This document shows positions 43,510 to 62,929 of a stretch of 64,000 nt of DNA, piece after piece. Position 1 is the stretch's first letter. Every line of letters begins with the position of its first letter. Under the pieces are notes generated by a model that saw nothing but the letters and a program-made list of their open reading frames with translations, had not been told where the DNA came from and did not search any database. The DNA is taken from the NCBI GenBank assembly GCA_900545825.1, contig URAS01000002.1, positions 91,953-155,952 on the forward strand, given 5' to 3'. This DNA comes from an uncultured Actinomyces sp. Its GTDB lineage: Bacteria; Actinomycetota; Actinomycetes; Actinomycetales; Actinomycetaceae. A program made the position numbers and the translations under genes.

Positions 43510-45393
43510 CTAGGCCGGGTAGATCCCCTCGAAGAAGTCGGCGAGCCGCTCGGGTTCACTGAGCGGGACGATCGCCGCGACATACATGTCGGGGCGCACG
43601 GCGATGGCGACGCCGCCGCGGTCGATCTCGCGCTCGGCGAAGATGTCGACGTCCTCGGTAATCCCGAAGACTTTTTCGAGGTTGATGAGCCCCAGCGGCC
43701 CCGTGACCGGCTTAAACAGGTCGGGCACGTCGTTGGGGTCGATGTCGTGGTGATCCTGCTGATAGATGACCTTGACGTCAAAGAGGGCGTCGAGGTCGTC
43801 GCCCTCGCGGCGGGTCGTAAGGATCGGCGAGCGGTCGTTCGACGCCATCCACTCGGCCCACGCGCGCAGCACCGAATCCTTGGCCTCGGCGGGCGCCGAG
43901 TCGGCGAACGCGTAGATCCGCCAGCGCCCGTCGGCCTCGTGGAGATGGCCCAGCTGCTTGGGGTTCGCGTCGCAGCGGCGGCCGACCTCGGCCGACTTGA
44001 AGCGCTTGCCCAGCGGGAAACCCTTGGCGAGGTCGGTCGCCGAGTCGCCGAAGGTGAGGACCGAAGGGCGGTACTGCGTCATGAAGCCGGCCGGGAACTC
44101 CGCGGTCTGGACGTAGAAGTCCTCGATGCTCAAGCCGTCCTCTTCCTTGACCATCATCGACGACCAGCGCGAGTCAAAGTCGATGAGGTCCTGGGCGATC
44201 TGCTGCCGCTCGGCCGTGTAGGTTCCCAGCAGTGAGCCGGGCGCGCGGCCGGTGAGGACATGCCCGAGCTTCCAGCCCAGGTTAAAGGCGTCCTGCATCG
44301 ACACGTTCATCCCCTGCCCCGCCTTCGCCGAGTGCGTGTGGCACGCGTCGCCGGCGATAAAGACGTGCGGGTCGCGGGTGCCGGCCTCCTCGACCGGGAT
44401 CTCGTCGAACCGGTCGGTCACGCGGTGACCCACCTCGTAGACGGACCACCAGGCGACCTCGCGGACGTCGAGCGTGTAAGGCGAGAGGATCGCGTTGGCG
44501 CGGCGGATGATCTCCTCGATCGGGGTCTCGCGCACCTTGTGGTGGTCGGCCTGCGTCTGATCGCCGAGGTCGACGTAGATGCGGGCGAGGTAGCCGCCCT
44601 CGCGGGGAATGTGGAGGATCGAGCCGTGCGTCGACTGGATGATCGCCTTGTTACGAATGTCCGGGAAGTCGGTGTTCGACAGGACGTCCATGACGCCCCA
44701 CGCATGCATCTGTGCCTTGCCCAGGTGGCGGGCACCGATCGCCCGACGCACCCGCGAATGCGCACCATCCCCGCCGAACAGGTACTTCGTCCGCACGGTG
44801 AACTGCTCACCATCGTGGTCGCCACCCACGTGCGCCACCGTCGCCAGCACCGGATACTCGGCGCCCTCGTCAAACTCGAGGTCGACGAACTCGTAGCCGT
44901 AATACGGCTTCAAGCGGGCCGGCGAGTAGCGTTCGGCGCGCTCGCGGAAGTAGTCGAGGATGCGCGCCTGGTTGATGATGAGGTGGGGGAACTCCGAGAT
45001 CCCCATGGGGTCGTCGGGCGTGCGCGTCGTGCGGACGATGTGGTCGGGGTTGTCCGGATCCGGCTTCCAGAAGGACGTCTCGGTGATCCGGTAGGCCTCG
45101 GCTTTGACTTCCTCGGCGAAGCCGAACGCCTGGAACGTCTCGACGCTGCGCTGCTGGACGCCGTCGGCGTGGCCGAGGACCAGACGGCCCTCGCGCTTTT
45201 CAATCATGGCCGTCCGCACCGTCGGGAAGTCCGCCAGCTGCGAGAACATGAGCATTCCCGCGGGGCCGGACCCCACAATGAGGACGTCGAGTTCGGTGGG
45301 CAGGGTGTCGGGGCGTTCCTCGAGGCCGACTCCGGCGGCGGGCTTGACCCGCGGATCCGTCGACACATACCCGTAGTGGTGAAATTGCTGCAT
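43510..45393 (-). CDS. FAD-dependent aromatic ring hydroxylase of the phenol 2-monooxygenase family with a C-terminal thioredoxin-like domain; candidate hydroxyphenylacetate hydroxylase
   Basis: 627 aa with VLIVGSGPAGM (GxGxxG), GDACHTHSAKAGQGMN (the DG/GD motifs of group A flavin monooxygenases) and a ~170-aa C-terminal extension. Confidence 0.7.
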   Translation of the reverse strand: MQQFHHYGYVSTDPRVKPAAGVGLEERPDTLPTELDVLIVGSGPAGMLMFSQLADFPTVRTAMIEKREGRLVLGHADGVQQRSVETFQAFGFAEEVKAEAYRITETSFWKPDPDNPDHIVRTTRTPDDPMGISEFPHLIINQARILDYFRERAERYSPARLKPYYGYEFVDLEFDEGAEYPVLATVAHVGGDHDGEQFTVRTKYLFGGDGAHSRVRRAIGARHLGKAQMHAWGVMDVLSNTDFPDIRNKAIIQSTHGSILHIPREGGYLARIYVDLGDQTQADHHKVRETPIEEIIRRANAILSPYTLDVREVAWWSVYEVGHRVTDRFDEIPVEEAGTRDPHVFIAGDACHTHSAKAGQGMNVSMQDAFNLGWKLGHVLTGRAPGSLLGTYTAERQQIAQDLIDFDSRWSSMMVKEEDGLSIEDFYVQTAEFPAGFMTQYRPSVLTFGDSATDLAKGFPLGKRFKSAEVGRRCDANPKQLGHLHEADGRWRIYAFADSAPAEAKDSVLRAWAEWMASNDRSPILTTRREGDDLDALFDVKVIYQQDHHDIDPNDVPDLFKPVTGPLGLINLEKVFGITEDVDIFAEREIDRGGVAIAVRPDMYVAAIVPLSEPERLADFFEGIYPA

Positions 45394-45561
45394 GGTCGCT
45401 CCTCACAACCTTGTGGGGTGATCTACCAGCACGATCATATATGCTTCCAGATAGGATGCCAAGAGTTTGGGCGACTTTTCCGCAGCCCCTCCCCCGAGAC
45501 GGCGGATCGTGTATGATTTCGGATAGGATTATGTATCCCGTAGCAGACCCAAGGAGGCGTT

Positions 45562-46347
45562 ATGCTCACCGACTCGCAGATCACCCGTATCGCCGATGAC
45601 CTCCTCGAGGCCCATCGCACCCGCACCCCGATCCCCCTGCTCACCAAGCGTTTCGACGGCATGGAGGTCGCCGACTCGTACGCCGTCCAGCGGCTGTGGG
45701 CCCAGCGGACCCGCGACGCCGGGCGCACGCTCGTCGGCCGCAAGATCGGCCTGACGTCGAAGGCCATGCAGGACGCCACGGGCATCACCGAGCCCGACTA
45801 CGGGGTCATTTTCGACGACATGGTCTTCGAGTCGGGCTGCGAGGTCGACTGGGGCCGCTACACCCACCCCCGCATCGAGGTCGAGCTGGCGTTCGTCCTC
45901 GGGAAGGACGTCACCGGGCCCGCGGCGACGGTGTTCGACGTCCTCGACGCGACCGAATGGGTGACGCCGGCGCTCGAGATCCTCGACTCGCGCATCGAGA
46001 TGGAGGGCCGGACGATCGTCGACACGATCGCCGACAACGCGGCGATGGGCGCGATGGTCGTCGGCGGCCGCCCGATGCGGGTCGACCAGCTGGATCTGCG
46101 CTGGGTCGGCGCGATGCTCTACCGCAACCAGACGATCGAGGAGACGGGCGTGGCCGGCGGCGTCCTCGGGCATCCGGCGAACGGCGTCGCGTGGCTGGCG
46201 AACAAGATCGCGCCGCACGGCGACCACCTGCACGCCGGCGAGATCATCCTCGCCGGGTCGTTCACGCGGCCGATGTGGGTCTACGAGGGCGACTCGGTGG
46301 TCGCCGACTACGGGCGAATGGGGACGGTGACATGCCAGTTCAACTGA
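45562..46347 (+). CDS. hpaH: 2-oxo-hept-4-ene-1,7-dioate / 2-keto-4-pentenoate hydratase (MhpD/HpaH family)
   Basis: 261 aa (RBS AAGGAGG) with [14 protein letters not shown] and [12 protein letters not shown] motifs. Confidence 0.8.
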
Positions 46348-47123
46348 GCACTTCTCGCACGCTGATCGCCCACCTGGCCGAGGCGGGGCGCCCGCTGGCC
46401 GGCATGTGGGTGTGTTCGGCCTCGCCGATCGCCGCGGAGATTTGCGCGGGATCCGGCCTCGACTACGTGCTGATCGACGCCGAGCATTCGCCGAATGACC
46501 TCTCGACACTGTTGCCGCAGCTGCACGCGTGCGCGGCGTACCCGGCGACGACGATCGTCAGGGTGCCGTACAACGACGAACGCCTCATCAAGCAGTTCCT
46601 GGACCTCGGTGTCGTTAACCTGTTGGTCCCTATGGTGCACACGGCCGAGCAGGCGCGCGCCGCCGTCGCGCGCGTCACCTATCCGCCGGAGGGCGTGCGC
46701 GGTGTCGGGTCGGCGCTGGCGCGGGCGTCGCGGTGGAATCGCGTGCCGAATTACCTGGCGAGGGCGCGCGAGACGATTTCGCTGATCCTCCAGATCGAGT
46801 CGGGCCAGGCCTGCGAGAACGTCGACGAGATCGCGGCGGTCGAGGGCGTCGACGCCCTCTTCGTGGGGCCGGCGGATTTGGCGGGCGACCTCGGGCTGCT
46901 GGGTCAGGCCGAGGACGAGGCCGTCGTCGAGCGGGTGCTCGCCTGCATCGAGGCGGGCCACCGCGCGGGCAAGCCGGTGGGGACGAACGCGTTTAACCCG
47001 GAGATGGCCAGGCGGTATTTCGAGGCTGGGGCGGACTTCGTCCTCGTGGGGGCGGACGTCACGCTGCTGGCGAGGGCCAGCGAGAAGTTGGCGGACGACT
47101 ACCTGCCGACGCTCGGCGGCTAG
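46332..47123 (+). CDS. hpaI: HpcH/HpaI-family aldolase (4-hydroxy-2-oxoheptanedioate aldolase)
   Basis: 263 aa. The ATG at 46332 overlaps the hydratase gene end by 16 nt. Contains LIDAEHSPND and LQIESGQA. Confidence 0.8.
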   Translation: MPVQLSTSRTLIAHLAEAGRPLAGMWVCSASPIAAEICAGSGLDYVLIDAEHSPNDLSTLLPQLHACAAYPATTIVRVPYNDERLIKQFLDLGVVNLLVPMVHTAEQARAAVARVTYPPEGVRGVGSALARASRWNRVPNYLARARETISLILQIESGQACENVDEIAAVEGVDALFVGPADLAGDLGLLGQAEDEAVVERVLACIEAGHRAGKPVGTNAFNPEMARRYFEAGADFVLVGADVTLLARASEKLADDYLPTLGG

Positions 47124-47139
47124 AGCCGCCCTCTTACGC

Positions 47140-47219
47140 GAAGCGCTCACCTAACGTGTTAAAACTGCCGGATACCGGACAGGATCGACATTTTAGGTGA
47201 GCGTTTCGGTTTTTTCGCG
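47140..47219. repeat. Copy A of the GAAACGCTCACC / GGTGAGCGTTTC repeat family. Here it ends in GGTTTTTT, so it also looks like the intrinsic terminator of the hydratase-aldolase operon
   Basis: GAAGCGCTCACC-TAACGTGTTAAAACTGCCGGATACCGGACAGGATCGACATTTTA-GGTGAGCGTTTC-GGTTTTTTCGCG. Its reverse complement is ~85% identical to copy B. Confidence 0.55.
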
Positions 47220-47223
47220 GAGG

Positions 47224-48657
47224 CTACCGCGGGAGGCCGACGTAGATCGTCTCTTCGAACTCGTCGATGCCCTCGAGGCCACCCTCGCGGCCCAGGCCCG
47301 ACGCTTTGACGCCGCCGAAGGGCGCCGCGGCGTTCGAGATGGTCCCGGAGTTGACGCCGAGCATCCCGACCTCGAGGCGGCGGGCCAGCCGCATGATCCG
47401 GCCGATATCGCGGGTGTGGACGTAGCCGGCGAGGCCGAACTCGGTGTCGTTGGCGTAGCGGACGACCTCGTCCTCGTCGTCGAAGCCGCAGATGGCGGCG
47501 ACGGGGCCGAAGACCTCCTCGCGCATGAGCGGGTTGTCGGGCGCGACGTCGCCGATCACGGTCGGCGGGTAGAAGTAGCCGGCGCCCTCGGGGACCTGGC
47601 CGCCGCAGCGCAGGATGCCGCCCGCGGCGACCGACCGGTCGACGAGGTCGGCGACATGGTCGCGCTGCTTCGCCGAGATAATCGGGCCGACGTCGACGCC
47701 CTCGGCCATCCCGTCGCCGACGGTCATCGCGGCGAACGCGTCGGCCAGGCGCGACGTGAACTCGGCCTGCAGCGACCGGTGGACGTAGAAGCGCGAGGAC
47801 GCGTTGCAGGCCTCGCCCATGTTGCGCATCTTCGTCGCGATCGCGGCGTCGACGGCGAGGGCGAGGTCGGCGTCCTCGAAGACGATAAACGGCGCCAGGC
47901 CGCCCAATTCCATCGAGGTGCGGAGGACGTTTTCGGCGGCCTCGCGCAGCAGGGCCCGCCCGACGCCGGTCGAGCCGGTGAACGAGATCTTCCGCAGCCG
48001 GGGATCGGCGATCATCGGGCCGGTCATCGGCGGCGTGTCCGCGGTCGGGACGACGTTGACGACGCCGGCGGGCAGGCCGATCTGGTCGAACACCTCGGCG
48101 AGCAGGAGCGACGTCAGCGGGGTCGCGTCGGAGGGCTTGAGGACGCACGTGCAGCCGGCCGCGAGCGCCGGCGCGATCTTGCGGGTGGCCATGGCGAGGG
48201 GGAAGTTCCACGGCGTGATGAAGAGGCACGGCCCGACGGGGCGCTTGAGGGTGAGGACGTGGACGCCGCCCTCGGGGGTGGGGTAGCTGGCGCCGTGGGC
48301 GTGGGGCGCGGATTCGGCGAACCAGCGCAAGAATTCGGCGCCGTAGGTGACCTCGGCGTATGCCTGGTCGAGGGGCTTGCCCATCTCGAGGGTCATGCAG
48401 CGGGCGAAGTCGTCGGCGCGGGCGGTGACGGCGTCGAAGGCGCGGGCGAGGTAGTCGGCGCGGACGCGCACGGGGGTCTCGGCCCAGGATTCGGCGGCGC
48501 GGTGGGCGGCGTCGAGGGCGGCCATGCCGTCGGCGGGCGACGCCGAGGCGACCTCGGCGAGGACGTCCTCGGTGGCGGGGTTGACGACGGGGAAGGTCTG
48601 GCCGGTCGCGGACGGCCGCCAGGTGCCGTCGATAAAGAGCGAGGTCGGATAGGACAT
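47224..48657 (-). CDS. NAD(P)+-dependent succinate-semialdehyde dehydrogenase (GabD-like), paralog 1
   Basis: 477 aa from an internal ATG (MSYPTSLFIDGTWRP). Contains MELGGLAP (Glu) and MGEACNASSRF (Cys). The 71-codon upstream extension was rejected. Confidence 0.8.
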   Translation of the reverse strand: MSYPTSLFIDGTWRPSATGQTFPVVNPATEDVLAEVASASPADGMAALDAAHRAAESWAETPVRVRADYLARAFDAVTARADDFARCMTLEMGKPLDQAYAEVTYGAEFLRWFAESAPHAHGASYPTPEGGVHVLTLKRPVGPCLFITPWNFPLAMATRKIAPALAAGCTCVLKPSDATPLTSLLLAEVFDQIGLPAGVVNVVPTADTPPMTGPMIADPRLRKISFTGSTGVGRALLREAAENVLRTSMELGGLAPFIVFEDADLALAVDAAIATKMRNMGEACNASSRFYVHRSLQAEFTSRLADAFAAMTVGDGMAEGVDVGPIISAKQRDHVADLVDRSVAAGGILRCGGQVPEGAGYFYPPTVIGDVAPDNPLMREEVFGPVAAICGFDDEDEVVRYANDTEFGLAGYVHTRDIGRIMRLARRLEVGMLGVNSGTISNAAAPFGGVKASGLGREGGLEGIDEFEETIYVGLPR

Positions 48658-48715
48658 GCGGGGGATCCTTTCGGGCCTGAAGGCTGGGGGGGTCGGCGAC
48701 GGTGCCGAACCTCCC

Positions 48716-48900
48716 ACTAATCGTATATGATTTCCTCGATAACGCGCCAGCCCCCGCGAGCCAACCGCCCCGGCCAGGCCCTTCACGCATCCCGACCACA
48801 CGCAATCCGCCAGAGAGAACTTCGCCGTTCCTCTTGACGCCGCCTGGTCGACCCCGTAGGCTGGAGTCAATCATATACGATTGAATGTATGATTAATCCG
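48716..48900. promoter_or_regulatory. Divergent promoter region carrying the operator-like 12-bp palindromes ATCGTATATGAT (48720-48731) and ATCATATACGAT (48870-48881), plus the half-site GAATGTATGATT
   Basis: AT-rich palindromes in a 70% GC background. The same motif occurs at 45506-45517 and 54102-54113. Confidence 0.5.
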
Positions 48901-48933
48901 AGAGAGACGACGTCGACTCCCACGGGAAGGACT

Positions 48934-50415
48934 GACATGGATCCTGTAACCGCCACCATTGGCCATCGCCCCGGCAAGATTTTCGCCGTTCACCTCTCGT
49001 ACGCCTCGCGCGCCGCGCAGCGCGGCCGCACGCCGGCCAACCCGTCGTACTTCTTTAAGGCGCCCTCGTCGCTGACCGGCTCGGGCACCGTCGCCCGTCC
49101 CGAAGGCTGCGAGCTCGTGGGCTTCGAGGGCGAGGTCGCCGTCGTCATCGGCACGCCCGGGCGCAACATCAGCGTCGAGGACGCGTGGAGCCACGTCGGC
49201 TGGGTGACCGCGGCGAACGACCTCGGCCTCCACGACATGCGGTACGCCGACCGCGGCTCGAACGTCCGCTCGAAGTCGGGCGACGGCTACTCCCCCGTCG
49301 GCCCCACGCTGCTGGATGCGCGTAAACTCGACGAAAAGCGCATCGGCGTCAAGACGTGGCTGGACGGCGCCCTCGTGTCGGACGACAACACGGGCGGGAT
49401 GCTGTTCACGATCTCGACGATGATCGCCGACCTCTCGCGCCTCCTCACCCTGGAGGAGGGCGACATGATCATGACCGGCGTCCCCGCCGGCGCATCGGTC
49501 GCCGAGCCGGGCCAGACGATCGAGGTCGAGGTCTTCAGCCTCGACGATCCCAGCCTGACGACGGGCCGCCTGCGCACCGAGGTCGTCTCCGCTCCCCCGC
49601 TGGCCAAGGTCGGCCACGCCCCGAAGGTCGATGACGCCCAGCGTTCGGACGCGTGGGGCTACCCGATCGGCACGGTCAAGGCCGAGGCCGACCGTCGCGC
49701 CCCGCTGGACCCCGAGGTCCGCCGCCGCCTCGAGAACGTCGGCGTCGGCACCCTGTCGGTGCAGCTGCGCAAGCGCGGCTACAACGAGGCGATCATCGAC
49801 GGCGTCAAGCCGCTCACCCCGGGCACACGCCTTATTGGTCCGGCCCGCACACTGCGCTACGTGCCGTTCCGCAAGGACCTGTTTGCCCAGCTCGGTGGCG
49901 GATTCAACCACCAGAAGCAGGTCGTCGACTCGCTGCGCGAAGGCGACGTCCTCGTCATGGATGCGCGCGGCTGCACCGAGGCCGGCACGCTGGGCGACAT
50001 CCTCGCCCTACGCGCGAAGACGCTGGGAGCGGCGGGCATCGTCACCGACGGCGCGGCCCGCGACTCGGCGGAGGTCGAGCGCGTCGGCCTGCCGGTGTTC
50101 ACGAACGGCCGCCACCCGGCCGTCCTCGGGCGCCGGCACGTGCCGTACGAGCACGACGTGACGATCGCCTGCGGCGGCGCCACGGTATGCGTCGGCGACA
50201 TCATCGTCGGCGACGACGACGGCGCCATCGTCATCCCCCGCGACCTGCTCAACGAGGTCCTCGCCGACGCCGAAGCCCAAGAACACCGCGAGCGCTTTAT
50301 CGCCGAACAGGTCGCGGCCGGCGAGAGCCTCGACGGGCTGTTCCCCGTGGCAAGCGACCACTGGAAGGAACGCTTCGCCGAGTGGGAGAAGGACCACCCC
50401 GCCCCGACTGCGTAA
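48934..50415 (+). CDS. Fusion protein: an N-terminal fumarylacetoacetate-hydrolase (FAH/HpaG-like) domain plus a C-terminal RraA-like (HMG/CHA aldolase / oxaloacetate decarboxylase family) domain
   Basis: 493 aa (RBS GGAAGGA). N-terminal domain: GFEGEVAVVIG...MIMTGVPAG. C-terminal domain: VLVMDARGCTEAGTLGDILALRAKTLGAAGIVTDGAARD. Confidence 0.65.
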   Translation, partial: DMDPVTATIGHRPGKIFAVHLSYASRAAQRGRTPANPSYFFKAPSSLTGSGTVARPEGCELVGFEGEVAVVIGTPGRNISVEDAWSHVGWVTAANDLGLHDMRYADRGSNVRSKSGDGYSPVGPTLLDARKLDEKRIGVKTWLDGALVSDDNTGGMLFTISTMIADLSRLLTLEEGDMIMTGVPAGASVAEPGQTIEVEVFSLDDPSLTTGRLRTEVVSAPPLAKVGHAPKVDDAQRSDAWGYPIGTVKAEADRRAPLDPEVRRRLENVGVGTLSVQLRKRGYNEAIIDGVKPLTPGTRLIGPARTLRYVPFRKDLFAQLGGGFNHQKQVVDSLREGDVLVMDARGCTEAGTLGDILALRAKTLGAAGIVTDGAARDSAEVERVGLPVFTNGRHPAVLGRRHVPYEHDVTIACGGATVCVGDIIVGDDDGAIVIPRDLLNEVLADAEAQEHRERFIAEQVAAGESLDGLFPVASDHWKERFAEWEKDHPAPTA

Positions 50416-50499
50416 CCCCGCAGGCGTCACTCCGCCCGACATCCCGGCGCCCAGCGCCCCGACACTTGTTGATTGTTCCGACTGACTGAAGGAGACCCC

Positions 50500-52032
50500 A
50501 TGACCGACGCAACCGGGTTGTTGCCGGATCACATCCAGCACTACATTGGCGGCCAATTCGTCGATTCGGCCGACGGCGACATGTTCGACGTCCTCGATCC
50601 GACGACGAACGAGGCCTACATCCAGTGCGCCTCCGGGAAGGCCGCCGACGTCGATGCCGCCGTTGCCGCCGCCCGCAAGGCGTTCGACGAGGGCCCGTGG
50701 CCCACGATGCAGCCGCGCGAGCGCGCCCGCATCCTCTACCGGATCGCCGACGAGGTCGAGAAGGTCCACTCCGAGCTGGCGGCGCTGGAGAGCCGCGACT
50801 CGGGTCTGCCGATCCGCCAGGCGAAGGGCCAGGCGAACCGCGCGGCCGAGAATTTCCGGTTCTTCGCCGACCTCATCGTTGCCCAGCGCGACGACACGTA
50901 CAAGATGCCGGGCCGCCAGATTAACTACGTCAACCGCAAGCCGAAGGGCGTCGCGGGCCTCATCACGCCGTGGAACACGCCGTTCATGCAGGAGTCGTGG
51001 AAGCTCGCGCCGGCCCTGGCGTCGGGCTGCACCCTGGTCCTCAAGCCCGCCGAGTTTACGCCCGCGTCGGCGTCGCTGTGGGCGGGCATCATGGAGCGCG
51101 CCGGCGTCCCCGAGGGCGTCTTTAACCTCGTCAACGGCTTCGGCGAGACGGCGGGCGACGCCCTCGTCAAGCACGAGGACGTCAACCTCATCTCGTTCAC
51201 CGGCGAGGCCGGCACGGGCCGCGTGATCTTCGCGAACTGCGCGCCGACGATGAAGGCGATGTCGATGGAGCTGGGCGGCAAGTCCCCGGCCGTCATCTTC
51301 GCCGACGCCGACTTCGAGGCCGCCCTCGACTCGACGTTGTTCGGCGTGTTTTCGCTCAACGGCGAACGCTGCACGGCGTCCTCGCGCATCCTCGTCGAGC
51401 GCCCGATTTACGACCGCTTCGTCGAGGCGTACGCCGAGCGCGCGAAGAAGATCAAGGTCGGCGTCCCGTCGGATCCCGACACCGAGATCGGCGCCCTCGT
51501 CCACCCCGAGCACTACGACAAGGTGACGAGCTACGTCGAGATCGGCAAGAAAGAGGCGCGCCTGGTCGCCGGCGGTGAGCGGCCCGCGGGCTTCGAGAAG
51601 GGCAACTACCTCGAGGCGACGGTGTTCGCCGACGTCGACCGCGACGCGCGGATCTTCCAGGAGGAAATCTTCGGCCCCGTCGTCTGCATCACCCCGTTCG
51701 ACACCGACGAGGAGGCCCTCGAGCTCGCCAACTGCGTCGAGTACGGCCTCGCCGCCTACGTGTGGACGAAGGACGTCACCCGCGCCCACCTGTTCGCGCA
51801 CGGGATCGAGGCCGGCATGGTGTGGGTGAACTCCCACAACGTCCGCGACCTGCGCACCCCGTTCGGTGGGGTCAAGGCCTCCGGCCTCGGCCACGAGGGC
51901 GGCTACCGCTCCCTCGACTTCTATTCCGACCAGCAAGCTATCCACATTCGCCTGGGCGACGTGCACACCACTCGCTTTGGCGCCACCGGTTACGCCGATA
52001 ACGACCTCGGCCTGGGCGGACCTTCCGCGTAA
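50500..52032 (+). CDS. hpaE: 5-carboxymethyl-2-hydroxymuconate semialdehyde dehydrogenase (HpaE / XylG family ALDH)
   Basis: 510 aa (RBS GAAGGAGA) with MELGGKSPAVIF, LNGERCTASSR (Cys) and EEIFGPV. Confidence 0.82.
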   Translation: MTDATGLLPDHIQHYIGGQFVDSADGDMFDVLDPTTNEAYIQCASGKAADVDAAVAAARKAFDEGPWPTMQPRERARILYRIADEVEKVHSELAALESRDSGLPIRQAKGQANRAAENFRFFADLIVAQRDDTYKMPGRQINYVNRKPKGVAGLITPWNTPFMQESWKLAPALASGCTLVLKPAEFTPASASLWAGIMERAGVPEGVFNLVNGFGETAGDALVKHEDVNLISFTGEAGTGRVIFANCAPTMKAMSMELGGKSPAVIFADADFEAALDSTLFGVFSLNGERCTASSRILVERPIYDRFVEAYAERAKKIKVGVPSDPDTEIGALVHPEHYDKVTSYVEIGKKEARLVAGGERPAGFEKGNYLEATVFADVDRDARIFQEEIFGPVVCITPFDTDEEALELANCVEYGLAAYVWTKDVTRAHLFAHGIEAGMVWVNSHNVRDLRTPFGGVKASGLGHEGGYRSLDFYSDQQAIHIRLGDVHTTRFGATGYADNDLGLGGPSA

Positions 52033-52121
52033 CCCCTCCGCGCGGCGTGGGCGGCCCGTCCACGCCGCGGCCTACACAGGCAATGCCCGATTACCGATGT
52101 CACAGCCAAAGGAGACTGATC

Positions 52122-53201
52122 ATGCACGAAATCGATCCCATCGCCACCCCGACCGCGCCTGCCCCGGACATCCTCCGATGCGCCTACATGGAAGTCATCG
52201 TGTCGGACCTTGCACGGTCGCGTGAGTTCTACGTCGACACGCTCGGCCTCGTCGTCACCAAGGAGACCGAGGACGCCCTCTACCTGCGGACCTTCGACGA
52301 GTTCATCCACCACAACCTCGTCCTCCGCGTTGGCCCGACGCCGGCGGTCGCCGCGTTTGCGTTCCGCGTCCGCAGCCCCGAAGAGGTCGACAAGGCCGAG
52401 GCCTACTACAAGGAGCTGGGCTGCCGCACCGAACGGCGCAAGGACGGCTTCGTCGACGGCATCGGCGACGCCGTGCGCGTCGAGGACCCGCTGGGCTTCC
52501 CCTACGAGTTCTTCTTCGAGTGCGAGCACGTGCCGCGCATGTGCTGGGACTACGACAAGCAGTCGGCCGGCGCCCTCGTCCGCCTCGACCACTTCAACCA
52601 GGTGTTCCCCGACGTCGTCAACGGCTCGAAGTACCTGGAAGACCTGGGCTTCAAGCGGACCGAGGACATCAAGGACGACAAGGACGTCACCTACGCCGCG
52701 TGGTTCGCGCGCAAGCACACCGTCCACGACACGGCGCTGACCGGCGGCGACGGCCCGAGGATGCACCACATCGCGTTCGCGACGCACGAGAAGCACAACA
52801 TCCTCTACATTTGCGACAAGCTGGGCGCCCTGCGCCAGTCCGACGCGATCGAGCGCGGCCCGGGGCGTCACGGCGTCTCGAACGCGTTCTACCTGTACCT
52901 GCGCGACCCCGACGGGCACCGCGTCGAAATCTACACGCAGGACTACTACACGGGTGACCCCGACAACCCGACGATCACGTGGGACGTCCACGACAACCAG
53001 CGGCGTGACTGGTGGGGCCACCAGGTCGTCCCGTCGTGGTACCGCGACGCCTCGCTGGTCCTCGACCTCGACGGCAATCCGCAGCCGCTCATCGCCCGCC
53101 AGGAACCGAAGGAGCTGGACGTGACGATCGGCGCCGACGGCTTCTCGTACACCCGCAAGGGCGACGAGGAGAAGGGCTACAAGGTCGGGTCGCAGCTGTA
53201 G
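52122..53201 (+). CDS. hpaD: Homoprotocatechuate (3,4-dihydroxyphenylacetate) 2,3-dioxygenase, a type I extradiol dioxygenase
   Basis: 359 aa (RBS AAAGGAGA). Two VOC modules with His/Glu metal ligands (HHIAF...; E in DPDGHRVEIY). Confidence 0.8.
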   Translation: MHEIDPIATPTAPAPDILRCAYMEVIVSDLARSREFYVDTLGLVVTKETEDALYLRTFDEFIHHNLVLRVGPTPAVAAFAFRVRSPEEVDKAEAYYKELGCRTERRKDGFVDGIGDAVRVEDPLGFPYEFFFECEHVPRMCWDYDKQSAGALVRLDHFNQVFPDVVNGSKYLEDLGFKRTEDIKDDKDVTYAAWFARKHTVHDTALTGGDGPRMHHIAFATHEKHNILYICDKLGALRQSDAIERGPGRHGVSNAFYLYLRDPDGHRVEIYTQDYYTGDPDNPTITWDVHDNQRRDWWGHQVVPSWYRDASLVLDLDGNPQPLIARQEPKELDVTIGADGFSYTRKGDEEKGYKVGSQL

Positions 53202-53303
53202 ACCAGCCCACGTTGTGGCACCCGGGCGGCGGCGGCCGGTCCCCATCCCGTTATGCTGGGACCGGCGCCGCTACCGGGCGGCGTCGCGATCAAGGAGGCT
53301 GAG

Positions 53304-53960
53304 ATGGCCGAGGGCATGTCCAAGTCGGAACGCGTCTACATGAAGCTGCGCGAGGGGATCCTCCAGGGCAAATACACGCCCGGCTACCGTTTCGTCCTCG
53401 ACCGGATCGCCCGCGAGGAGGGCGTGTCGCCCGTACCCGTACGCGAGGCCGTGCGACTCCTCGAGGCCGAAGGGCTCGTCACGTTCCAACGCAACGTCGG
53501 CGCCGTCGTCTCGGCGATCGACAAGCACGTCTACGCCGAAACGATGGAGACCGTCGCCGTCCTCGAGGGCTATGCCACCGCGCTGGCCGCGGCACACATC
53601 ACCGAGGACGACCTCGCCGAAGCCCAGAACGTCAACGACCGGATGCGGCATCGGCTGACCTCGGCGTTTGACCCGCGCGAGGTGACGCTCCTCAACAAGC
53701 AGTTCCACCGGATCATTACCTCGGCGTGTCCCAACCAGCGCATGCTCGACATCCTCGAGCGTGAATGGGACCGCATCACCTTTATTCGACGCAGCCAGTT
53801 TGCGTTCGACCCCGTCCACTCGATCCGTTCCGTCGACGAGCACGACGCCATCATCCAGGCGATGCGCGAGCGCGACGCCGACCAGATCGAGCAGCTGGCC
53901 CGGCAGCACAAAATGCGGACGCTGCGCCAGTACCTGGCCACCGACCACTCCCAGGCGTAA
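53304..53960 (+). CDS. GntR-family transcriptional regulator (FadR/FCD subfamily), the likely regulator of the cluster
   Basis: 218 aa (RBS AAGGAGG). N-terminal winged helix-turn-helix (RIAREEGVSPVPVREAVRLLE) plus an FCD domain. Confidence 0.8.
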   Translation: MAEGMSKSERVYMKLREGILQGKYTPGYRFVLDRIAREEGVSPVPVREAVRLLEAEGLVTFQRNVGAVVSAIDKHVYAETMETVAVLEGYATALAAAHITEDDLAEAQNVNDRMRHRLTSAFDPREVTLLNKQFHRIITSACPNQRMLDILEREWDRITFIRRSQFAFDPVHSIRSVDEHDAIIQAMRERDADQIEQLARQHKMRTLRQYLATDHSQA

Positions 53961-54072
53961 CCGCCGGCGTCACCCCCTGCGTCACCCCGGCAGGCGGGCG
54001 GTCGGTCGCGGCGATGCCCTGCGCGGCGCTGTTGTCGCGCGCGAGGGCGCCGCGGTTTTTCCTCGTTATCTC

Positions 54073-54150
54073 TTGACACCGTGGCGTACGTCACGGTTAT
54101 AATCGTATACGATCGCGTTTATGGTCGCATATGTGACTCACGTTCACCGC
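54073..54150 (+). promoter_or_regulatory. Near-consensus promoter of the MFS gene (TTGACA at 54073-54078, 19 nt, TATAAT at 54098-54103) overlapped by three operator-like palindromes
   Basis: CCGTGGCGTACGTCACGG sits between the -35 and -10 boxes. ATCGTATACGAT (54102-54113) overlaps the -10. CTCACGTTCAC (54138-54148) matches the GTCACGTTCAC motif of the 60-63 kb inverted repeats. Confidence 0.5.
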
Positions 54151-54161
54151 TGATAGGAGCC

Positions 54162-55604
54162 ACCATGACCCACCAGTCGACCCCCTCCCCCGCCAGCTCC
54201 CAGCTGGTCCTTAACCCCCACAACCGTGAAGACCGCAGAGTCGCGGTCGCCACCCTCGTCGGCACGACCGTCGAGTGGTACGACTTCTTCATCTACTCCA
54301 ACGCCGTCGCCCTCGTGTTCGGTCCCCTGTTCTTCGAGCCGCTGGCCAAGGAAAACACCGTGCTGGCCCAGCTCATCGGGTTCGCGACCGTGGGCATCAG
54401 CTTCTTCTTCCGCCCGCTGGGCGCCATGGTCGCCGGCCACCTGGGCGACAAGATCGGCCGCAAGGCGATGATGGTGGCGACGCTGCTGCTCATGGGTGGC
54501 GCGACCGTCCTCGTCGGCTGCCTGCCGACGTACGCGTCGATCGGGATGGCCGCGCCGTTCCTCCTCATCGCCCTCCGTATCCTCCAGGGCTTCGCGGCCG
54601 GCGGCGAGTGGGGCGGCGCCGCCCTCATGGCGGTCGAGCACGCGCCGGCGAAGCGCCGCGGCTGGTTCGGCGGGTTCCCGCAGGTCGGCGTGCCTCTGGG
54701 CATGCTGACGGCGACGGCGGTCCTCGCGATCGTCCACGTCATCTCGCGCGACCAGTTCACGACGTGGGGCTGGCGGATCCCGTTCCTCCTGTCGGTCGTC
54801 CTCATCATCGTCGGCATGCTCATCCGCCTCAAGGTGTCGGAATCGCCGATCTTCGAGGAGGTCCGCAACGAGGAAGACCAGCTGCGCCTGCCGATCGTCC
54901 AGCTGTTCCGGTTCAACGGCAAGCAGGTCGTCCTCGGCGCCCTCGCGTTCATGGGCAACGGCGTCGCCGGATACATGGTGACCGGCGGCTACATCCTCGC
55001 CTACACGTCCGGGCCCGGCGGCCTGGGGGTCAGCGCCGAGCACATGCTCACGCTCATCACGATCGCGTCGGCGCTGTGGGTCTGCTCGACCCTGTTCGCC
55101 GCGTGGATTTCCGACCGGATCGGGCGCGTGCGGACGTTCCAGATCGGCTTCGTCCTCCAGCTGCTGTGGGTGTTCCCCCTGTTCATGTTCGTTGACCGCG
55201 GCCAGATCGGCCTCATCGCCCTCGGCATGCTGCCGCTGACGCTGGGCCTGGGCCTGACCTACGGCCCGCAGTCGGCGATGTTCGCCGAGATGTTCCCGGC
55301 CCGCGTCCGCTACTCCGGCGCCGGCATGGCGTACGCGATCGGCGCGATCCTCGGTGGCGCGTTCGCGCCGATGATCGCCACGTGGCTGAGGGCGACGTTC
55401 CACACGTCGATGGCGGTGTCGACCTACCTGTTCATCTTCACGGCGATCGGCATGGTCGGCGTGTCCCTGATCAAGGACCGGACGGGCAAGCCGCTGGGCC
55501 GCGACGCGAACGACATCCCCGGCAACGCCGAGCTCGAGGCGGCCGTCACGGCGCACTCGGTCTCCGGTACGAAGGCGACGTTCGAGCGCGGCGCCGGCTG
55601 GTAA
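54162..55604 (+). CDS. MFS transporter of the metabolite:H+ symporter family; probable aromatic acid permease
   Basis: 480 aa with 12 TM segments, the signature GHLGDKIGRK and GGEWGGAALMAVEHAP. Confidence 0.8.
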   Translation, partial: TMTHQSTPSPASSQLVLNPHNREDRRVAVATLVGTTVEWYDFFIYSNAVALVFGPLFFEPLAKENTVLAQLIGFATVGISFFFRPLGAMVAGHLGDKIGRKAMMVATLLLMGGATVLVGCLPTYASIGMAAPFLLIALRILQGFAAGGEWGGAALMAVEHAPAKRRGWFGGFPQVGVPLGMLTATAVLAIVHVISRDQFTTWGWRIPFLLSVVLIIVGMLIRLKVSESPIFEEVRNEEDQLRLPIVQLFRFNGKQVVLGALAFMGNGVAGYMVTGGYILAYTSGPGGLGVSAEHMLTLITIASALWVCSTLFAAWISDRIGRVRTFQIGFVLQLLWVFPLFMFVDRGQIGLIALGMLPLTLGLGLTYGPQSAMFAEMFPARVRYSGAGMAYAIGAILGGAFAPMIATWLRATFHTSMAVSTYLFIFTAIGMVGVSLIKDRTGKPLGRDANDIPGNAELEAAVTAHSVSGTKATFERGAGW

Positions 55605-60409: not shown

Positions 60410-61195
60410 ATGCTCACCGACGACCAGATTTCCGCTGCCGCAGCCGACCTCGCCGAGGCCGCCGACACGCACCAGCTTGCTACGCCGCTGACCAGGCGGT
60501 TTACCGACATGACCATCCCGGACGCCTATGCGATTCAGCGCGCCCGGGTCAAGGAGCGCGAGGCCGCCGGCGAGCGCGTCGCCGGGCACAAGGTCGGCGT
60601 GACGTCGCGGCCCCTCCAGCGGTCGCTGGGCCTCGAGGCGCCGATTTTCGGCACGATCTTCGCCGATGACGTCCGCGATTCGGGGGCGTCGTTCGATTGG
60701 TCGCTGTTGCACGGCCCGCGCCTGGAGGTCGAGTTGGCGTTCATGATCGCCGAAGACCTGGTCGGCCCCAGCATCAGCCCCGCCGCCGCCCTTGCAGCGA
60801 CCGAGTACGTGCGCGCCGCCCTCGAGGTCGTCGACACGCGTGTGAGCCCCGACGGGTCGACGATGGTCGACGCCGTCGCCGACAACTCGAGCCTGGGCGC
60901 GATCGTCCTCGGCGAGGAAGAGGTGCGGCCCGACCTCCTCAACCTGCGCTGGTCAGGGGCGATGCTCTACCGCAACGACGAGCTGGTCGGCACCGGCCTG
61001 TCCGCGGGCGCCCTCGGGAACCCCGCGAACTCGCTCGCCTGGCTGGCGAACACGCTGCCGACCTACGGCGACCACCTGCGCGCCGGCGAGGTCGTCATGA
61101 CCGGGGCGTTCATCGCTCCCCTGCCGGTCGAGCAGGGTGACCACATTCGCGTCAACTACGGCCACCTCGGCGAGGTCACCTGCGCCTTCGCGTAA
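60410..61195 (+). CDS. 2-keto-4-pentenoate / 2-oxo-hept-4-ene-1,7-dioate hydratase, paralog 2
   Basis: 261 aa (RBS AAGGAGG), ~45% identical to the hydratase at 45562. PRLEVELAFMIAED; GEVVMTGAFIAP. Confidence 0.8.
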   Translation: MLTDDQISAAAADLAEAADTHQLATPLTRRFTDMTIPDAYAIQRARVKEREAAGERVAGHKVGVTSRPLQRSLGLEAPIFGTIFADDVRDSGASFDWSLLHGPRLEVELAFMIAEDLVGPSISPAAALAATEYVRAALEVVDTRVSPDGSTMVDAVADNSSLGAIVLGEEEVRPDLLNLRWSGAMLYRNDELVGTGLSAGALGNPANSLAWLANTLPTYGDHLRAGEVVMTGAFIAPLPVEQGDHIRVNYGHLGEVTCAFA

Positions 61196-61348: not shown

Positions 61349-62812
61349 CTACCGCGGGATGCCGACGTACACGGTCTCGAGGAACTCGTCGATGCCAGTG
61401 TGGCCGCCCTCGCGTCCCAGGCCCGACGCCTTAACGCCGCCGAAGGGCGCAGCGGCATTCGACACGGTCTGCGAATTCAGCCCGATCATGCCGACCTCCA
61501 GGCGGTCGACCAGCCGGAAAATCCGCGCGGCATCGTTCGTGTAGACGTACCCGGCGAGGCCGTACGGCGTGTCGTTGGCCCACTCGAGCACCTGATCCTC
61601 GTCGTCGAACGCGAGGACGGGCGCGACCGGGCCGAAGACCTCCTCGTGCATGAGCGGGTCGTCGGGCCCGGACACGCGGATAACCGTGGGCTCGAAGAAG
61701 AAGCCGTCCCGGTCGATCCGGTGCCCGCCCGTGACGACCTCGCTGCCCGCGGCGACCGAACGGTCCACCAAATCAGCGACCGAATTGAGCTGCTTCTCGG
61801 AGATGATCGGGCCGACGTCGACGCCGTCCTCGAGGCCGTCGCCGACGGTCTGCGCCGCCATCTTGTCGGCGAAACGGCGCGTGAATTCGTCGACCAGCGA
61901 GCTGTGGATGAAGAAGCGGTCGGCGGCGTTGCAGGCCTCGCCCATGTTGCGCATCTTCGTCGCCATCGCCGCGTCGACGGCGAGGTCGAGGTCGGCGTCG
62001 GCAAACACGATGAACGGCGCCAGGCCGCCCAGCTCCATCGACGTGCGCAAGACGTTGTCGGCCGCCTGCTTGAGCAGCGCGCTGCCGACCCCCGTCGACC
62101 CGGTAAACGACACCTTGCGCAGGCGCGGATCCGCCATCAACGGCCCCGTGACCTGCCTGGTCGACGCCGTGGGGACGACGTTGACGACGCCCGCAGGCAC
62201 GCCGACCTGCCGAAGGACGTCAATGAACAGCAGCGACGTCAGCGGCGTGTCGTGCGACGGCTTGAGGACGCACGTGCACCCGGCCGCGAGCGCCGGCGCG
62301 ATCTTGCGGGTCGACATGGCCAGCGGGAAGTTCCACGGCGTGATGAACAGGCACGGGCCGACCGGGCGCTGATGGGTGATGACGTGGATGGCGCCCTCGG
62401 GCGTGGGGTAGGCGTCGCCGGAAATATGGGCGGCGACCTCGCTAAACCAGCGGAGGAACTCGGCGCCATAGACGACCTCGCCGCGCGCCTGGTCCAGCGG
62501 CTTTCCCATTTCCAGGGTCATAAGGGCGGCGAAGTCGTCGGTCAGTTCGATGACGCGGTCGTAGGCGGCGGCCAGCAGGCTGGCGCGGGTGCGGGAGGGC
62601 GTTTCGGCCCACGCGCGCTGGGCGGCGCAGGCGGCGTCGAGGGCGGCCGCACCGTCGGCCTCGGTGCCGTCGGCGACCTGGGCGAGGACCTGCCCGGTTG
62701 CCGGATTGAGGACGTCAAAGGTTGCACCACCTGCGGCGTCGCGCCATTCTCCATTGACGAACACCTGGGTGGGGATACGGCTGATGAGGGCGTCGACGTC
62801 TACTGTGGCCAC
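61349..62812 (-). CDS. Succinate-semialdehyde dehydrogenase (GabD-like), paralog 2
   Basis: 487 aa from the GTG at 62812 (RBS AAGGAG plus a 7-nt spacer), ~65% identical to the SSADH at 47224. MELGGLAP; MGEACNAADRF. Confidence 0.8.
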   Translation of the reverse strand: MATVDVDALISRIPTQVFVNGEWRDAAGGATFDVLNPATGQVLAQVADGTEADGAAALDAACAAQRAWAETPSRTRASLLAAAYDRVIELTDDFAALMTLEMGKPLDQARGEVVYGAEFLRWFSEVAAHISGDAYPTPEGAIHVITHQRPVGPCLFITPWNFPLAMSTRKIAPALAAGCTCVLKPSHDTPLTSLLFIDVLRQVGVPAGVVNVVPTASTRQVTGPLMADPRLRKVSFTGSTGVGSALLKQAADNVLRTSMELGGLAPFIVFADADLDLAVDAAMATKMRNMGEACNAADRFFIHSSLVDEFTRRFADKMAAQTVGDGLEDGVDVGPIISEKQLNSVADLVDRSVAAGSEVVTGGHRIDRDGFFFEPTVIRVSGPDDPLMHEEVFGPVAPVLAFDDEDQVLEWANDTPYGLAGYVYTNDAARIFRLVDRLEVGMIGLNSQTVSNAAAPFGGVKASGLGREGGHTGIDEFLETVYVGIPR

Positions 62813-62929
62813 GGTTTCGCTCCTTCGCGATCGGTCGGCCCCCGCACACGCGCCAGGGCCGGCGGAATTGTCCGTTTTTCTCAGCCTAACGCCGGGGCCC
62901 AACTTCGGCACCCGCAGGCGCTACCCCCA

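Follow-up and report, generated by a model that had tools for sequence, protein, structure and literature searches.

A GntR/FCD regulator and palindromic operators predicted to control the homoprotocatechuate cluster of an uncultured Actinomyces sp.

Described regulators and the hpa locus

The meta-cleavage of homoprotocatechuate (3,4-dihydroxyphenylacetate, also known as the dopamine metabolite DOPAC) is controlled in Escherichia coli by HpaR, a MarR-family repressor of the hpa-meta operon that is reportedly released by hydroxyphenylacetates or by homoprotocatechuate. The present work deals with a cluster for the same pathway in an uncultured Actinomyces sp. (contig URAS01000002.1, positions 91,953 to 155,952; this whole stretch of 64,000 nucleotides is called the window hereafter) and with a GntR-type regulator, encoded at 53304-53960 on the plus strand, which would control the cluster through a set of AT-rich palindromes. 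A first-pass annotation of this DNA had already pointed to that protein as the repressor of four promoters on account of the palindromes that they share. Like HpaR, it would repress the homoprotocatechuate meta-cleavage genes in a pathway-specific manner from operators at the promoter, but HpaR belongs to the MarR family and has an unrelated operator sequence, whereas the regulator of the window is of the GntR/FCD type; according to Pfam and NCBIfam scans, it lacks a MarR domain, and the cluster does not encode a MarR protein. The two systems are thus a case of convergent regulation by separate families.

Operators of the FadR subfamily of GntR regulators are AT-rich palindromes with conserved GT and AC boxes placed 2 or 3 nt apart, the 2-nt spacing being listed for groups such as HypR and UxuR, and the members of the subfamily that serve a local catabolic cluster are typically repressors (Suvorova et al. 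2015, PMC4494728). The core of the palindromes in the window is the 12-bp word ATCGTATACGAT, whose dyad reads A-T-C-G-T-A-T-A-C-G-A-T, i.e., GT-AT-AC, so that the fit to the FadR/GntR pattern recognized in the first-pass annotation holds (TCGT-AT-ACGA, with GT and AC boxes at the 2-nt spacing). The base ahead of GT, usually G or T in the family (PMC4494728), is C here, as it is in HypR2, a regulator of Gammaproteobacteria that is predicted to bind the identical core (PMC4494728 supplement). The likeness to HypR2 includes the proteins, both of which combine a GntR winged helix-turn-helix (wHTH) domain with an FCD domain, their helix-turn-helix (HTH) regions being 43-51% identical in the alignment, with a common recognition helix, VS-x-(I/V)PVREA, and a common wing, N-x-GA; moreover, both kinds of regulator are local, with sites in divergent intergenic regions. 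HypR2 differs in its phylum and in being named after the hydroxyproline regulator HypR, while the regulon described here is actinobacterial and contains hpa genes; the second box, furthermore, is here a complete unit in a strict 12-bp register. Membership in the HypR2 group was considered and not assigned, given that regulon and phylum differ and that the comparison covers the HTH region only, and no orthologous group named Hpa is present in the supplement of PMC4494728.

For actinobacteria, no dedicated study of a GntR-type regulator or operator of hpa genes was found in the literature searched, which yielded only the annotation-level mention of hpaL in Corynebacterium aurimucosum. In the passages of Trost et al. 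(2010, PMC2830990) that concern the hpaGLEDHI cluster, hpaL is presented as a regulatory gene "apparently involved" in its control. It lies between hpaG and hpaE, just where most of the loci analysed here have their GntR gene; in the window, the regulator gene comes after hpaD and not, as hpaL, after the first gene, and the likeness to hpaL, as far as those passages go, is one of position only.

Operators, regulator and their comparative link

How many operators does the cluster contain, and which protein would bind them? The four palindromes of the first-pass annotation are present where it had placed them, namely ATCGTGTATGAT at 45506, ATCGTATATGAT at 48720, ATCATATACGAT at 48870 and ATCGTATACGAT itself at 54102. 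A search of the window for ATCGTATACGAT with up to 2 mismatches returned exactly these four matches versus 0.76 expected, a number reached by none of 100 dinucleotide-preserving shuffles (at 3 mismatches the search is uninformative, with 15 matches versus 10.7 expected); since the G+C content of the window is about 67%, chance alone would hardly produce such an AT-rich dyad. A position weight matrix (PWM) was built from 96 sites of other genomes, excluding those of the window and of Nanchangia anserum C64, the nearest sequenced relative found (regulator 69% identical, enzymes 75-91%, same gene order). Its top five matches in the window are those at 54102 (25.2 bits), 48870 (24.6), 48720 (24.6), 45506 (17.3) and 45434 (17.2), followed at 10.9 bits by a sixth that falls within a coding open reading frame (ORF). 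The fifth site, ATCATATATGCT at 45434-45445, overlaps the -10 box of the minus-strand hydroxylase promoter and had been missed before; the candidate regulon at four promoters stands, therefore, as regards its four sites, while its count has to be raised to five transcription units. All five sites are confined to three hpa intergenic regions that sum to about 650 bp, around 1% of the 64 kb.

The sites, designated O1 to O5, are not simple 12-mers in most cases. O1 (45434-45457), conserved in Nanchangia, is composed of ATCATATATGCT and a weak second unit, TCCAGATAGGAT (PWM scores of 17.2 and 1.1 bits), and it is a 25-nt direct repeat, with 80% identity, of O2 (45506-45529; ATCGTGTATGAT plus TTCGGATAGGAT, 17.3 and 8.1 bits), which is located 33 nt upstream of the start codon of hpaH and is identical in Nanchangia in 24 of its 24 nt. 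O3 (48720-48731) is the single unit ATCGTATATGAT (24.6 bits), 63 nt upstream of the start codon of the succinate-semialdehyde dehydrogenase (SSADH)-like gene, and is kept in Nanchangia and in a metagenome-assembled genome (MAG) of the Actinomycetaceae. O4 (48870-48893) joins ATCATATACGAT to TGAATGTATGAT (48882-48893; 24.6 and 2.4 bits) in a layout that recurs in 59 of 60 orthologous loci, and O5 (54102-54137) begins with the perfect ATCGTATACGAT and continues, in the same 12-bp register, with the degenerate units CGCGTTTATGGT and CGCATATGTGAC (25.2, -4.2 and -3.1 bits).

The half-site that the first-pass annotation had seen after 48870 is hence real and in a conserved register, and a weaker second unit at 12-bp spacing exists in four of the five operators (48870+48882, 45506+45518, 45434+45446 and 54102+54114), with 48720 being the single one. 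The same is observed at a larger scale: among about 102 distinct primary sites, 52% have a second site of at least 3 bits at offset +12, while any other offset between -40 and +40 accounts for at most 3%. In the column profile, ATCGTATACGAT is followed by TTCgtAC..GAt (consensus of the weaker second unit, TTCGTAYnnGAT) and nothing is conserved upstream of the primary unit. In many cases, then, the operator is a tandem of 24 bp in which a strong dyad is paired with a weaker one. At the MFS gene a third, still weaker unit occurs at 54126, which is clearer in Nanchangia (ACCATATACGAT, TTCGTTTACGGT and CTCGTATGTGAC in succession), and, as a rule, the units weaken progressively and always extend toward the downstream gene. 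Weaker boxes beside the palindromes are a common feature of the GntR family (PMC4494728), and the 12-bp tandem is a sharper instance of that described feature.

As to the regulator, its product has a GntR wHTH domain (Pfam, E = 1e-13, residues 25-86 of the 235-residue ORF) and, in residues 97-219, an FCD domain (PF07729, E = 4.9e-23), i.e., the all-helical C-terminal domain for effector binding and oligomerisation, and it is because of this combination that it can be placed, by its domains, in the FadR subfamily of the GntR family. A database protein of 218 residues is 100% identical to it, and the nearest solved structures are FCD regulators as well (7xp0, TM0439 (3sxy/3fms), 3c7j and McbR 4p9f). 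Three histidines of the FCD domain (H135, H180 and H202) are invariant in 31 homologues. Other FCD proteins have a metal-assisted site for carboxylate ligands, and by analogy the three residues are compatible with a site of that type. It was also considered whether an Asp at the position of FadR Arg35 could specify the C of TCGT, an idea that was dropped as this residue varies among orthologues that keep the motif.

A scan of genomes with the single GntR protein as query returned no loci. With an alignment of the 31 homologues as query, 80 loci from about 25 actinobacterial genera were collected, including Arthrobacter, Paenarthrobacter, Pseudarthrobacter, Microbacterium, Leucobacter, Rothia, Nesterenkonia, Georgenia and Bowdeniella, and also Amycolatopsis, Saccharopolyspora, Prauserella, Pseudonocardia, Frankia, Nocardia, Microbispora and Streptomyces, and across these genera the orthologues of the regulator sit in the hpa cluster. 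The usual order is a hydroxylase or MFS gene running leftward, an intergenic region, and then, rightward, FAH-RraA, GntR, HpaE, HpaD, HpaH, HpaI and sometimes SSADH, and the palindrome is found in almost every locus, mostly just upstream of FAH-RraA. When sites scoring 15 bits or more were counted in the 300 bp upstream of each gene in these loci, they turned out to precede the genes that lead a transcription unit, namely FAH-RraA (59/60 loci), the hydroxylase (26/30), the MFS gene (12/18), hpaH (4/5) and SSADH (6/7), and to be absent from those internal to operons, namely HpaD (0/63), HpaE (0/57), GntR (0/61), HpaH (0/45) and HpaI (0/51); random 310-bp windows used as control had a site in 34 of 1600 cases (about 2%). 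The regulator gene itself, last in the FAH-RraA operon of the window and second in most other genera, lies in that operon behind O4, which is the reason to propose that it is autoregulated.

The reverse test started from the motif alone, by searching metagenome contigs for exact matches to the 18-mer ATCGTATACGATTTCGTA. It gave 63 stretches, in 48 of which FAH-RraA is directly downstream and in the right orientation, with GntR coming next wherever the contig is long enough. Eleven of the other 15 matches are on low-GC contigs (GC 0.33-0.48), where an AT-rich word is expected by chance, three are no further than 100 nt from the end of their contig, and one is unexplained. This last one, in the contig L109 (4358-4375; GC 0.59), is an exact 18-nt match to the tandem operator and the only unexplained high-GC match of the scan, with no hpa or GntR gene within the 12.6 kb covered. 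As a separate observation, two of the low-GC contigs (L132, 1745-3589, and L134, 1221-1350) contain several copies of a 30-bp perfect palindrome, TTGTACGAAATCGTATACGATTTCGTACAA, inside a longer repeat; they are unrelated to hpa genes, and tblastn did not detect a GntR homologue in them.

Could the palindromes be bound by a different transcription factor encoded elsewhere, the adjacent GntR protein having another operator or role? The window comprises only 64 kb of the genome, and the available passages on C. aurimucosum mention two regulatory genes for the hpa and amine-uptake cluster (PMC2830990). Against this, the Pfam and NCBIfam scans revealed no regulator gene other than that of the GntR/FCD protein in the cluster or next to it, and the motif is of the class of the FadR subfamily, identical to the prediction for HypR2, whose recognition helix is similar. 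Furthermore, in two loci of Myceligenerans (L008 and L010, 9934-9957), a homologue that is 53-54% identical to the regulator has the tandem ATCATATATGAG followed by ATCAAACACGAT over its own promoter (TTGACA...TAGGAT), and hpa genes are absent within 10 kb of it. These homologues carry sites in the absence of hpa genes, which implies that the motif tracks the regulator rather than the hpa enzymes. In L010 (M. salitolerans), the homologue is followed by a gene for a thiamine-diphosphate enzyme, near enoyl-CoA hydratase and PaaZ-like (aldehyde dehydrogenase plus MaoC) genes, and the arrangement suggests a related regulon for aromatic acids in which the DNA specificity is the same. A factor other than GntR is, on balance, very unlikely, and the earlier assignment of the sites to the product of 53304-53960 is supported by comparative genomics (the 59 of 60 loci, the motif-only scan and the Myceligenerans cases).

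Promoters and the proposed mode of repression

Whether the bound regulator would repress or activate depends on where the sites lie with respect to the promoters. A strict consensus scan of 45300-54300 for promoters and terminators called one promoter and no terminator; the remaining promoters were read by eye, backed by conservation. The promoter called is that of the hydroxylase (45462-45434, minus strand), with TTGGCA at 45462-45457, a spacer of 17 nt and TATGAT at 45439-45434, and O1 covers this -10 box and extends to the -35 box. The FAH-RraA operon has a promoter at 48834-48862 (plus strand; TTGACG, 17 nt, TAGGCT), which was read from the sequence and is under the strict threshold of the tool, and both of its hexamers are kept in two further loci (L001 and L002). 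O4 begins 7 nt past its -10 box and would span from about +1 to +24. The window, Nanchangia and the Actinomycetaceae MAG have TTGACG, 17 nt and TAGGCT or TATGCT, with the operator 6-7 nt further on, and the loci of the Arthrobacter type have TTGACG, 17-18 nt and cATAGT, with the operator 1-2 nt further on. The MFS promoter (54073-54103, plus strand; TTGACA, 19 nt, TATAAT), also read from the sequence, is a tentative assignment because its 19-nt spacer exceeds the consensus, although its -35 box is kept in Nanchangia. O5 overlaps the end of its -10 box (the site at 54102 covers the last two bases of TATAAT, 54098-54103, so the overlap claimed in the first-pass annotation is correct) together with the transcription start. 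For hpaH, TATGAT and TAGGAT inside O2 are candidate -10 hexamers, and for SSADH, TACGAT, in the minus-strand half of O3, is a possible one. In pairwise comparison with the intergenic DNA of Nanchangia, operators and promoter hexamers stand out as conserved blocks between diverged flanks.

Two further elements lie in the vicinity of the MFS promoter. A 20-bp near-perfect palindrome, ACCGTGGCGT followed by ACGTCACGGT (54078-54097), fills the spacer between its -35 and -10 boxes; no other copy exists in the window and Nanchangia does not conserve it, and it could be either a second operator, for another factor, or a product of chance. Just 3' of the gntR stop codon, a GC-rich hairpin followed by GTTTTT (about 54007-54062) may terminate the FAH-RraA operon before the MFS promoter, which is under separate control; its folding is no better than that of shuffled sequences (z = -0.1), and the terminator scan made no call there.

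The proximity of the sites to -10 boxes raises the question of whether the repeated element could be a promoter element itself, an AT-rich, -10-like TAnnnT box for the RNA polymerase or for a dedicated sigma factor. Both TACGAT and TATGAT, which are halves of it, agree with the TAnnnT pattern of actinobacterial -10 boxes, and the best -10 candidate is inside the site at the hydroxylase and perhaps at SSADH and hpaH. What is conserved, however, is a strict 12-bp dyad with conserved flanking C-G positions, the best-defined promoters have separate, conserved -35 and -10 boxes upstream of the site, and the repeat in a 12-bp register would stay unexplained, all of which makes a promoter element extremely improbable. 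A binding site for the GntR protein is the reading kept here, and the overlap of the sites with the -10 box or the transcription start is the basis to propose repression: the geometry of the operators indicates a repressor, the sign of the regulation following from the position of the sites.

Some proteins of the FadR family, FadR among them, activate certain promoters. By this precedent, the GntR protein might bind and yet, at some promoters, act as an activator or with mixed sign, most likely at those with the single site of SSADH or with the hpaH site; the transcription starts are predictions, and the -10 and -35 assignments of hpaH and SSADH are weak. At the clear promoters, i.e., those of FAH-RraA (in about 60 loci), the hydroxylase and the MFS gene, the operator is nonetheless on the -10 box or at +1 to +24, and the local catabolic regulators of the subfamily typically repress (PMC4494728), so that activation appears unlikely, if somewhat less so than the participation of another factor.

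Our preferred reading, which we hold with high confidence, is hence that the GntR protein binds the predicted operators and represses the cluster. In the absence of inducer, its dimers would sit on the five operators, on or just downstream of the -10 boxes, and block five units: the FAD hydroxylase; hpaH-hpaI; the SSADH-like gene; the FAH/RraA-hpaE-hpaD-gntR operon, through whose repression via O4 the regulator would control its own synthesis; and the MFS transporter. An aromatic acid of the pathway would then bind the FCD domain and release the repressor. For the identity of this inducer, the logic of the pathway and the analogy with HpaR of E. coli lead to homoprotocatechuate and/or 3- or 4-hydroxyphenylacetate, a proposal that we regard as evenly balanced.

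How the tandem units would be occupied can be considered in the light of NanR of E. coli, which belongs to the FadR subfamily and represses by cooperative binding to tandem GGTATA repeats. In both cases an FCD repressor has several adjacent repeats over the promoter and the transcription start, and by this analogy the adjacent repeats suggest several dimers per operator, as in NanR; the repeats of NanR are direct hexamers, whereas here a strong palindrome is followed by weaker ones at 12-bp spacing. A more speculative extension, which we consider possible and rather doubtful, is that several GntR dimers stack cooperatively and with polarity from a nucleation site toward the interior of the transcribed DNA, forming a NanR-like multi-dimer repression complex in place of the single dimer that is usual, and that the regulator is a natural sensor of DOPAC or hydroxyphenylacetates in host-associated Actinomycetaceae. 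A fixed helical phasing between paired operators was also looked for and is unsupported: the window has spacings of 72 and 150 bp, as against 83 and 146 bp for Nanchangia and 134-199 bp in other loci.

Several points weigh against repression by the GntR protein as outlined above. The support is computational: it shows the sites, their excess over expectation, their conservation, their co-occurrence with the regulator and where they lie with respect to promoter hexamers, whereas physical binding, the sign of the regulation, any cooperativity between tandem units and the inducer proposed are inferences. The promoter hexamers are consensus matches with predicted starts, among them an MFS promoter with a 19-nt spacer, and the promoters of hpaH and SSADH are poorly defined. 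The secondary units of the window are weak (8.1, 2.4, 1.1 and -4.2 bits). The residue aligned with Arg35 of FadR is D, A, G, S or E among orthologues while the motif stays TCGT, and because of this a specific residue contact cannot be argued from the sequence. Regarding the comparative data, the 80 loci were collected via the regulator, whose presence is thus built into the set, and, with many of them from Arthrobacter species that are close relatives, the independent events are fewer than the counts suggest; the motif-seeded scan offsets the former bias in part, its query being an 18-mer of the Arthrobacter type.

Genes of the cluster and meaning of the regulon

The identities of the genes were taken from Pfam and NCBIfam scans. 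On this basis, the cluster, bordered by S7/EF-G genes on one side and by a formate-tetrahydrofolate ligase gene on the other, is assigned to the homoprotocatechuate meta-cleavage (hpa/hpc) type: the products HpaD, HpaE and HpaH pass the NCBIfam equivalog cut-offs, and HpaI is a best match under its cut-off. At its left end, the minus-strand gene 43510-45393 encodes a phenol 2-monooxygenase-like FAD hydroxylase of 627 residues (Pfam FAD_binding_3 and Phe_hydrox_dim; NCBIfam PRK08294, 916 bits), a candidate 3- or 4-hydroxyphenylacetate hydroxylase and candidate regulon member, which is a single-component FAD enzyme in contrast to the two-component HpaBC of E. coli; in most genera the hydroxylase gene adjoins the hpa operon and has the operator in common with it. 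Next, on the plus strand, are hpaH, for 2-oxo-hept-4-ene-1,7-dioate hydratase (45562-46347; TIGR02312, 359 bits, over the cut-off), and a gene for an HpaI-like aldolase (46344-47123; Pfam HpcH_HpaI, 2e-47; best NCBIfam model TIGR02311, 297 bits, under the cut-off of 368.8), and, on the minus strand, the gene for the SSADH-like aldehyde dehydrogenase (47224-48657; Pfam Aldedh; best NCBIfam model the SSADH model TIGR01780, under the cut-off).

The rightward operon starts with a fusion of FAH and RraA-like domains (48937-50415, plus strand; Pfam FAA_hydrolase and RraA-like; NCBIfam PRK12764, 693 bits), the conserved first gene of actinobacterial hpa operons. The fusion is taken to perform the HpaG-type decarboxylase step, its FAH domain matching the HpaG C-terminal model with a score under the cut-off; the Pfam and NCBIfam scans did not find an HpaF-type isomerase in the cluster, and for this reason the RraA-like half may supply the missing step. 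It is followed on the same strand by hpaE (50500-52032; 5-carboxymethyl-2-hydroxymuconate semialdehyde dehydrogenase; TIGR02299, 652 bits, over the cut-off), hpaD (52122-53201; 3,4-dihydroxyphenylacetate 2,3-dioxygenase; TIGR02295, 411 bits, over the cut-off) and, as last gene of the operon, that of the regulator (53304-53960; 218 residues). Beyond it, the separate plus-strand gene 54165-55604 encodes an MFS metabolite/H+ symporter (Pfam MFS_1 and Sugar_tr; best NCBIfam model TIGR00883, under the cut-off), by which the aromatic acid is probably taken up. Two more genes, for a second HpaH-like hydratase (FAA_hydrolase; 60410-61195, plus strand) and for another aldehyde dehydrogenase (61349-62911, minus strand), lie about 5 kb past the downstream end of the cluster, with no operator ahead of them, the best nearby PWM match being one of 4.2 bits inside a DUF885 gene.

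What does this add to the knowledge of the family? With a FadR-type repressor that acts locally on a catabolic cluster, the system is a well-defined, new instance of a very familiar arrangement, and no new mechanism is implied. What it provides is a concrete operator and a five-unit regulon for the actinobacterial homoprotocatechuate/hydroxyphenylacetate pathway in about 25 genera, with Arthrobacter, Microbacterium, Rothia, Amycolatopsis, Frankia and the Actinomycetaceae among them, for a pathway that in E. coli is under an unrelated MarR-type repressor. This allows a better annotation of a protein that is now labelled just as "GntR family transcriptional regulator", and, through the predicted co-regulation, the FAH-RraA fusion can be linked to the pathway together with the MFS transporter and the phenol-hydroxylase-like enzyme. 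Being compact, the repressor/operator pair might also be of use as a biosensor for hydroxyphenylacetates or DOPAC.

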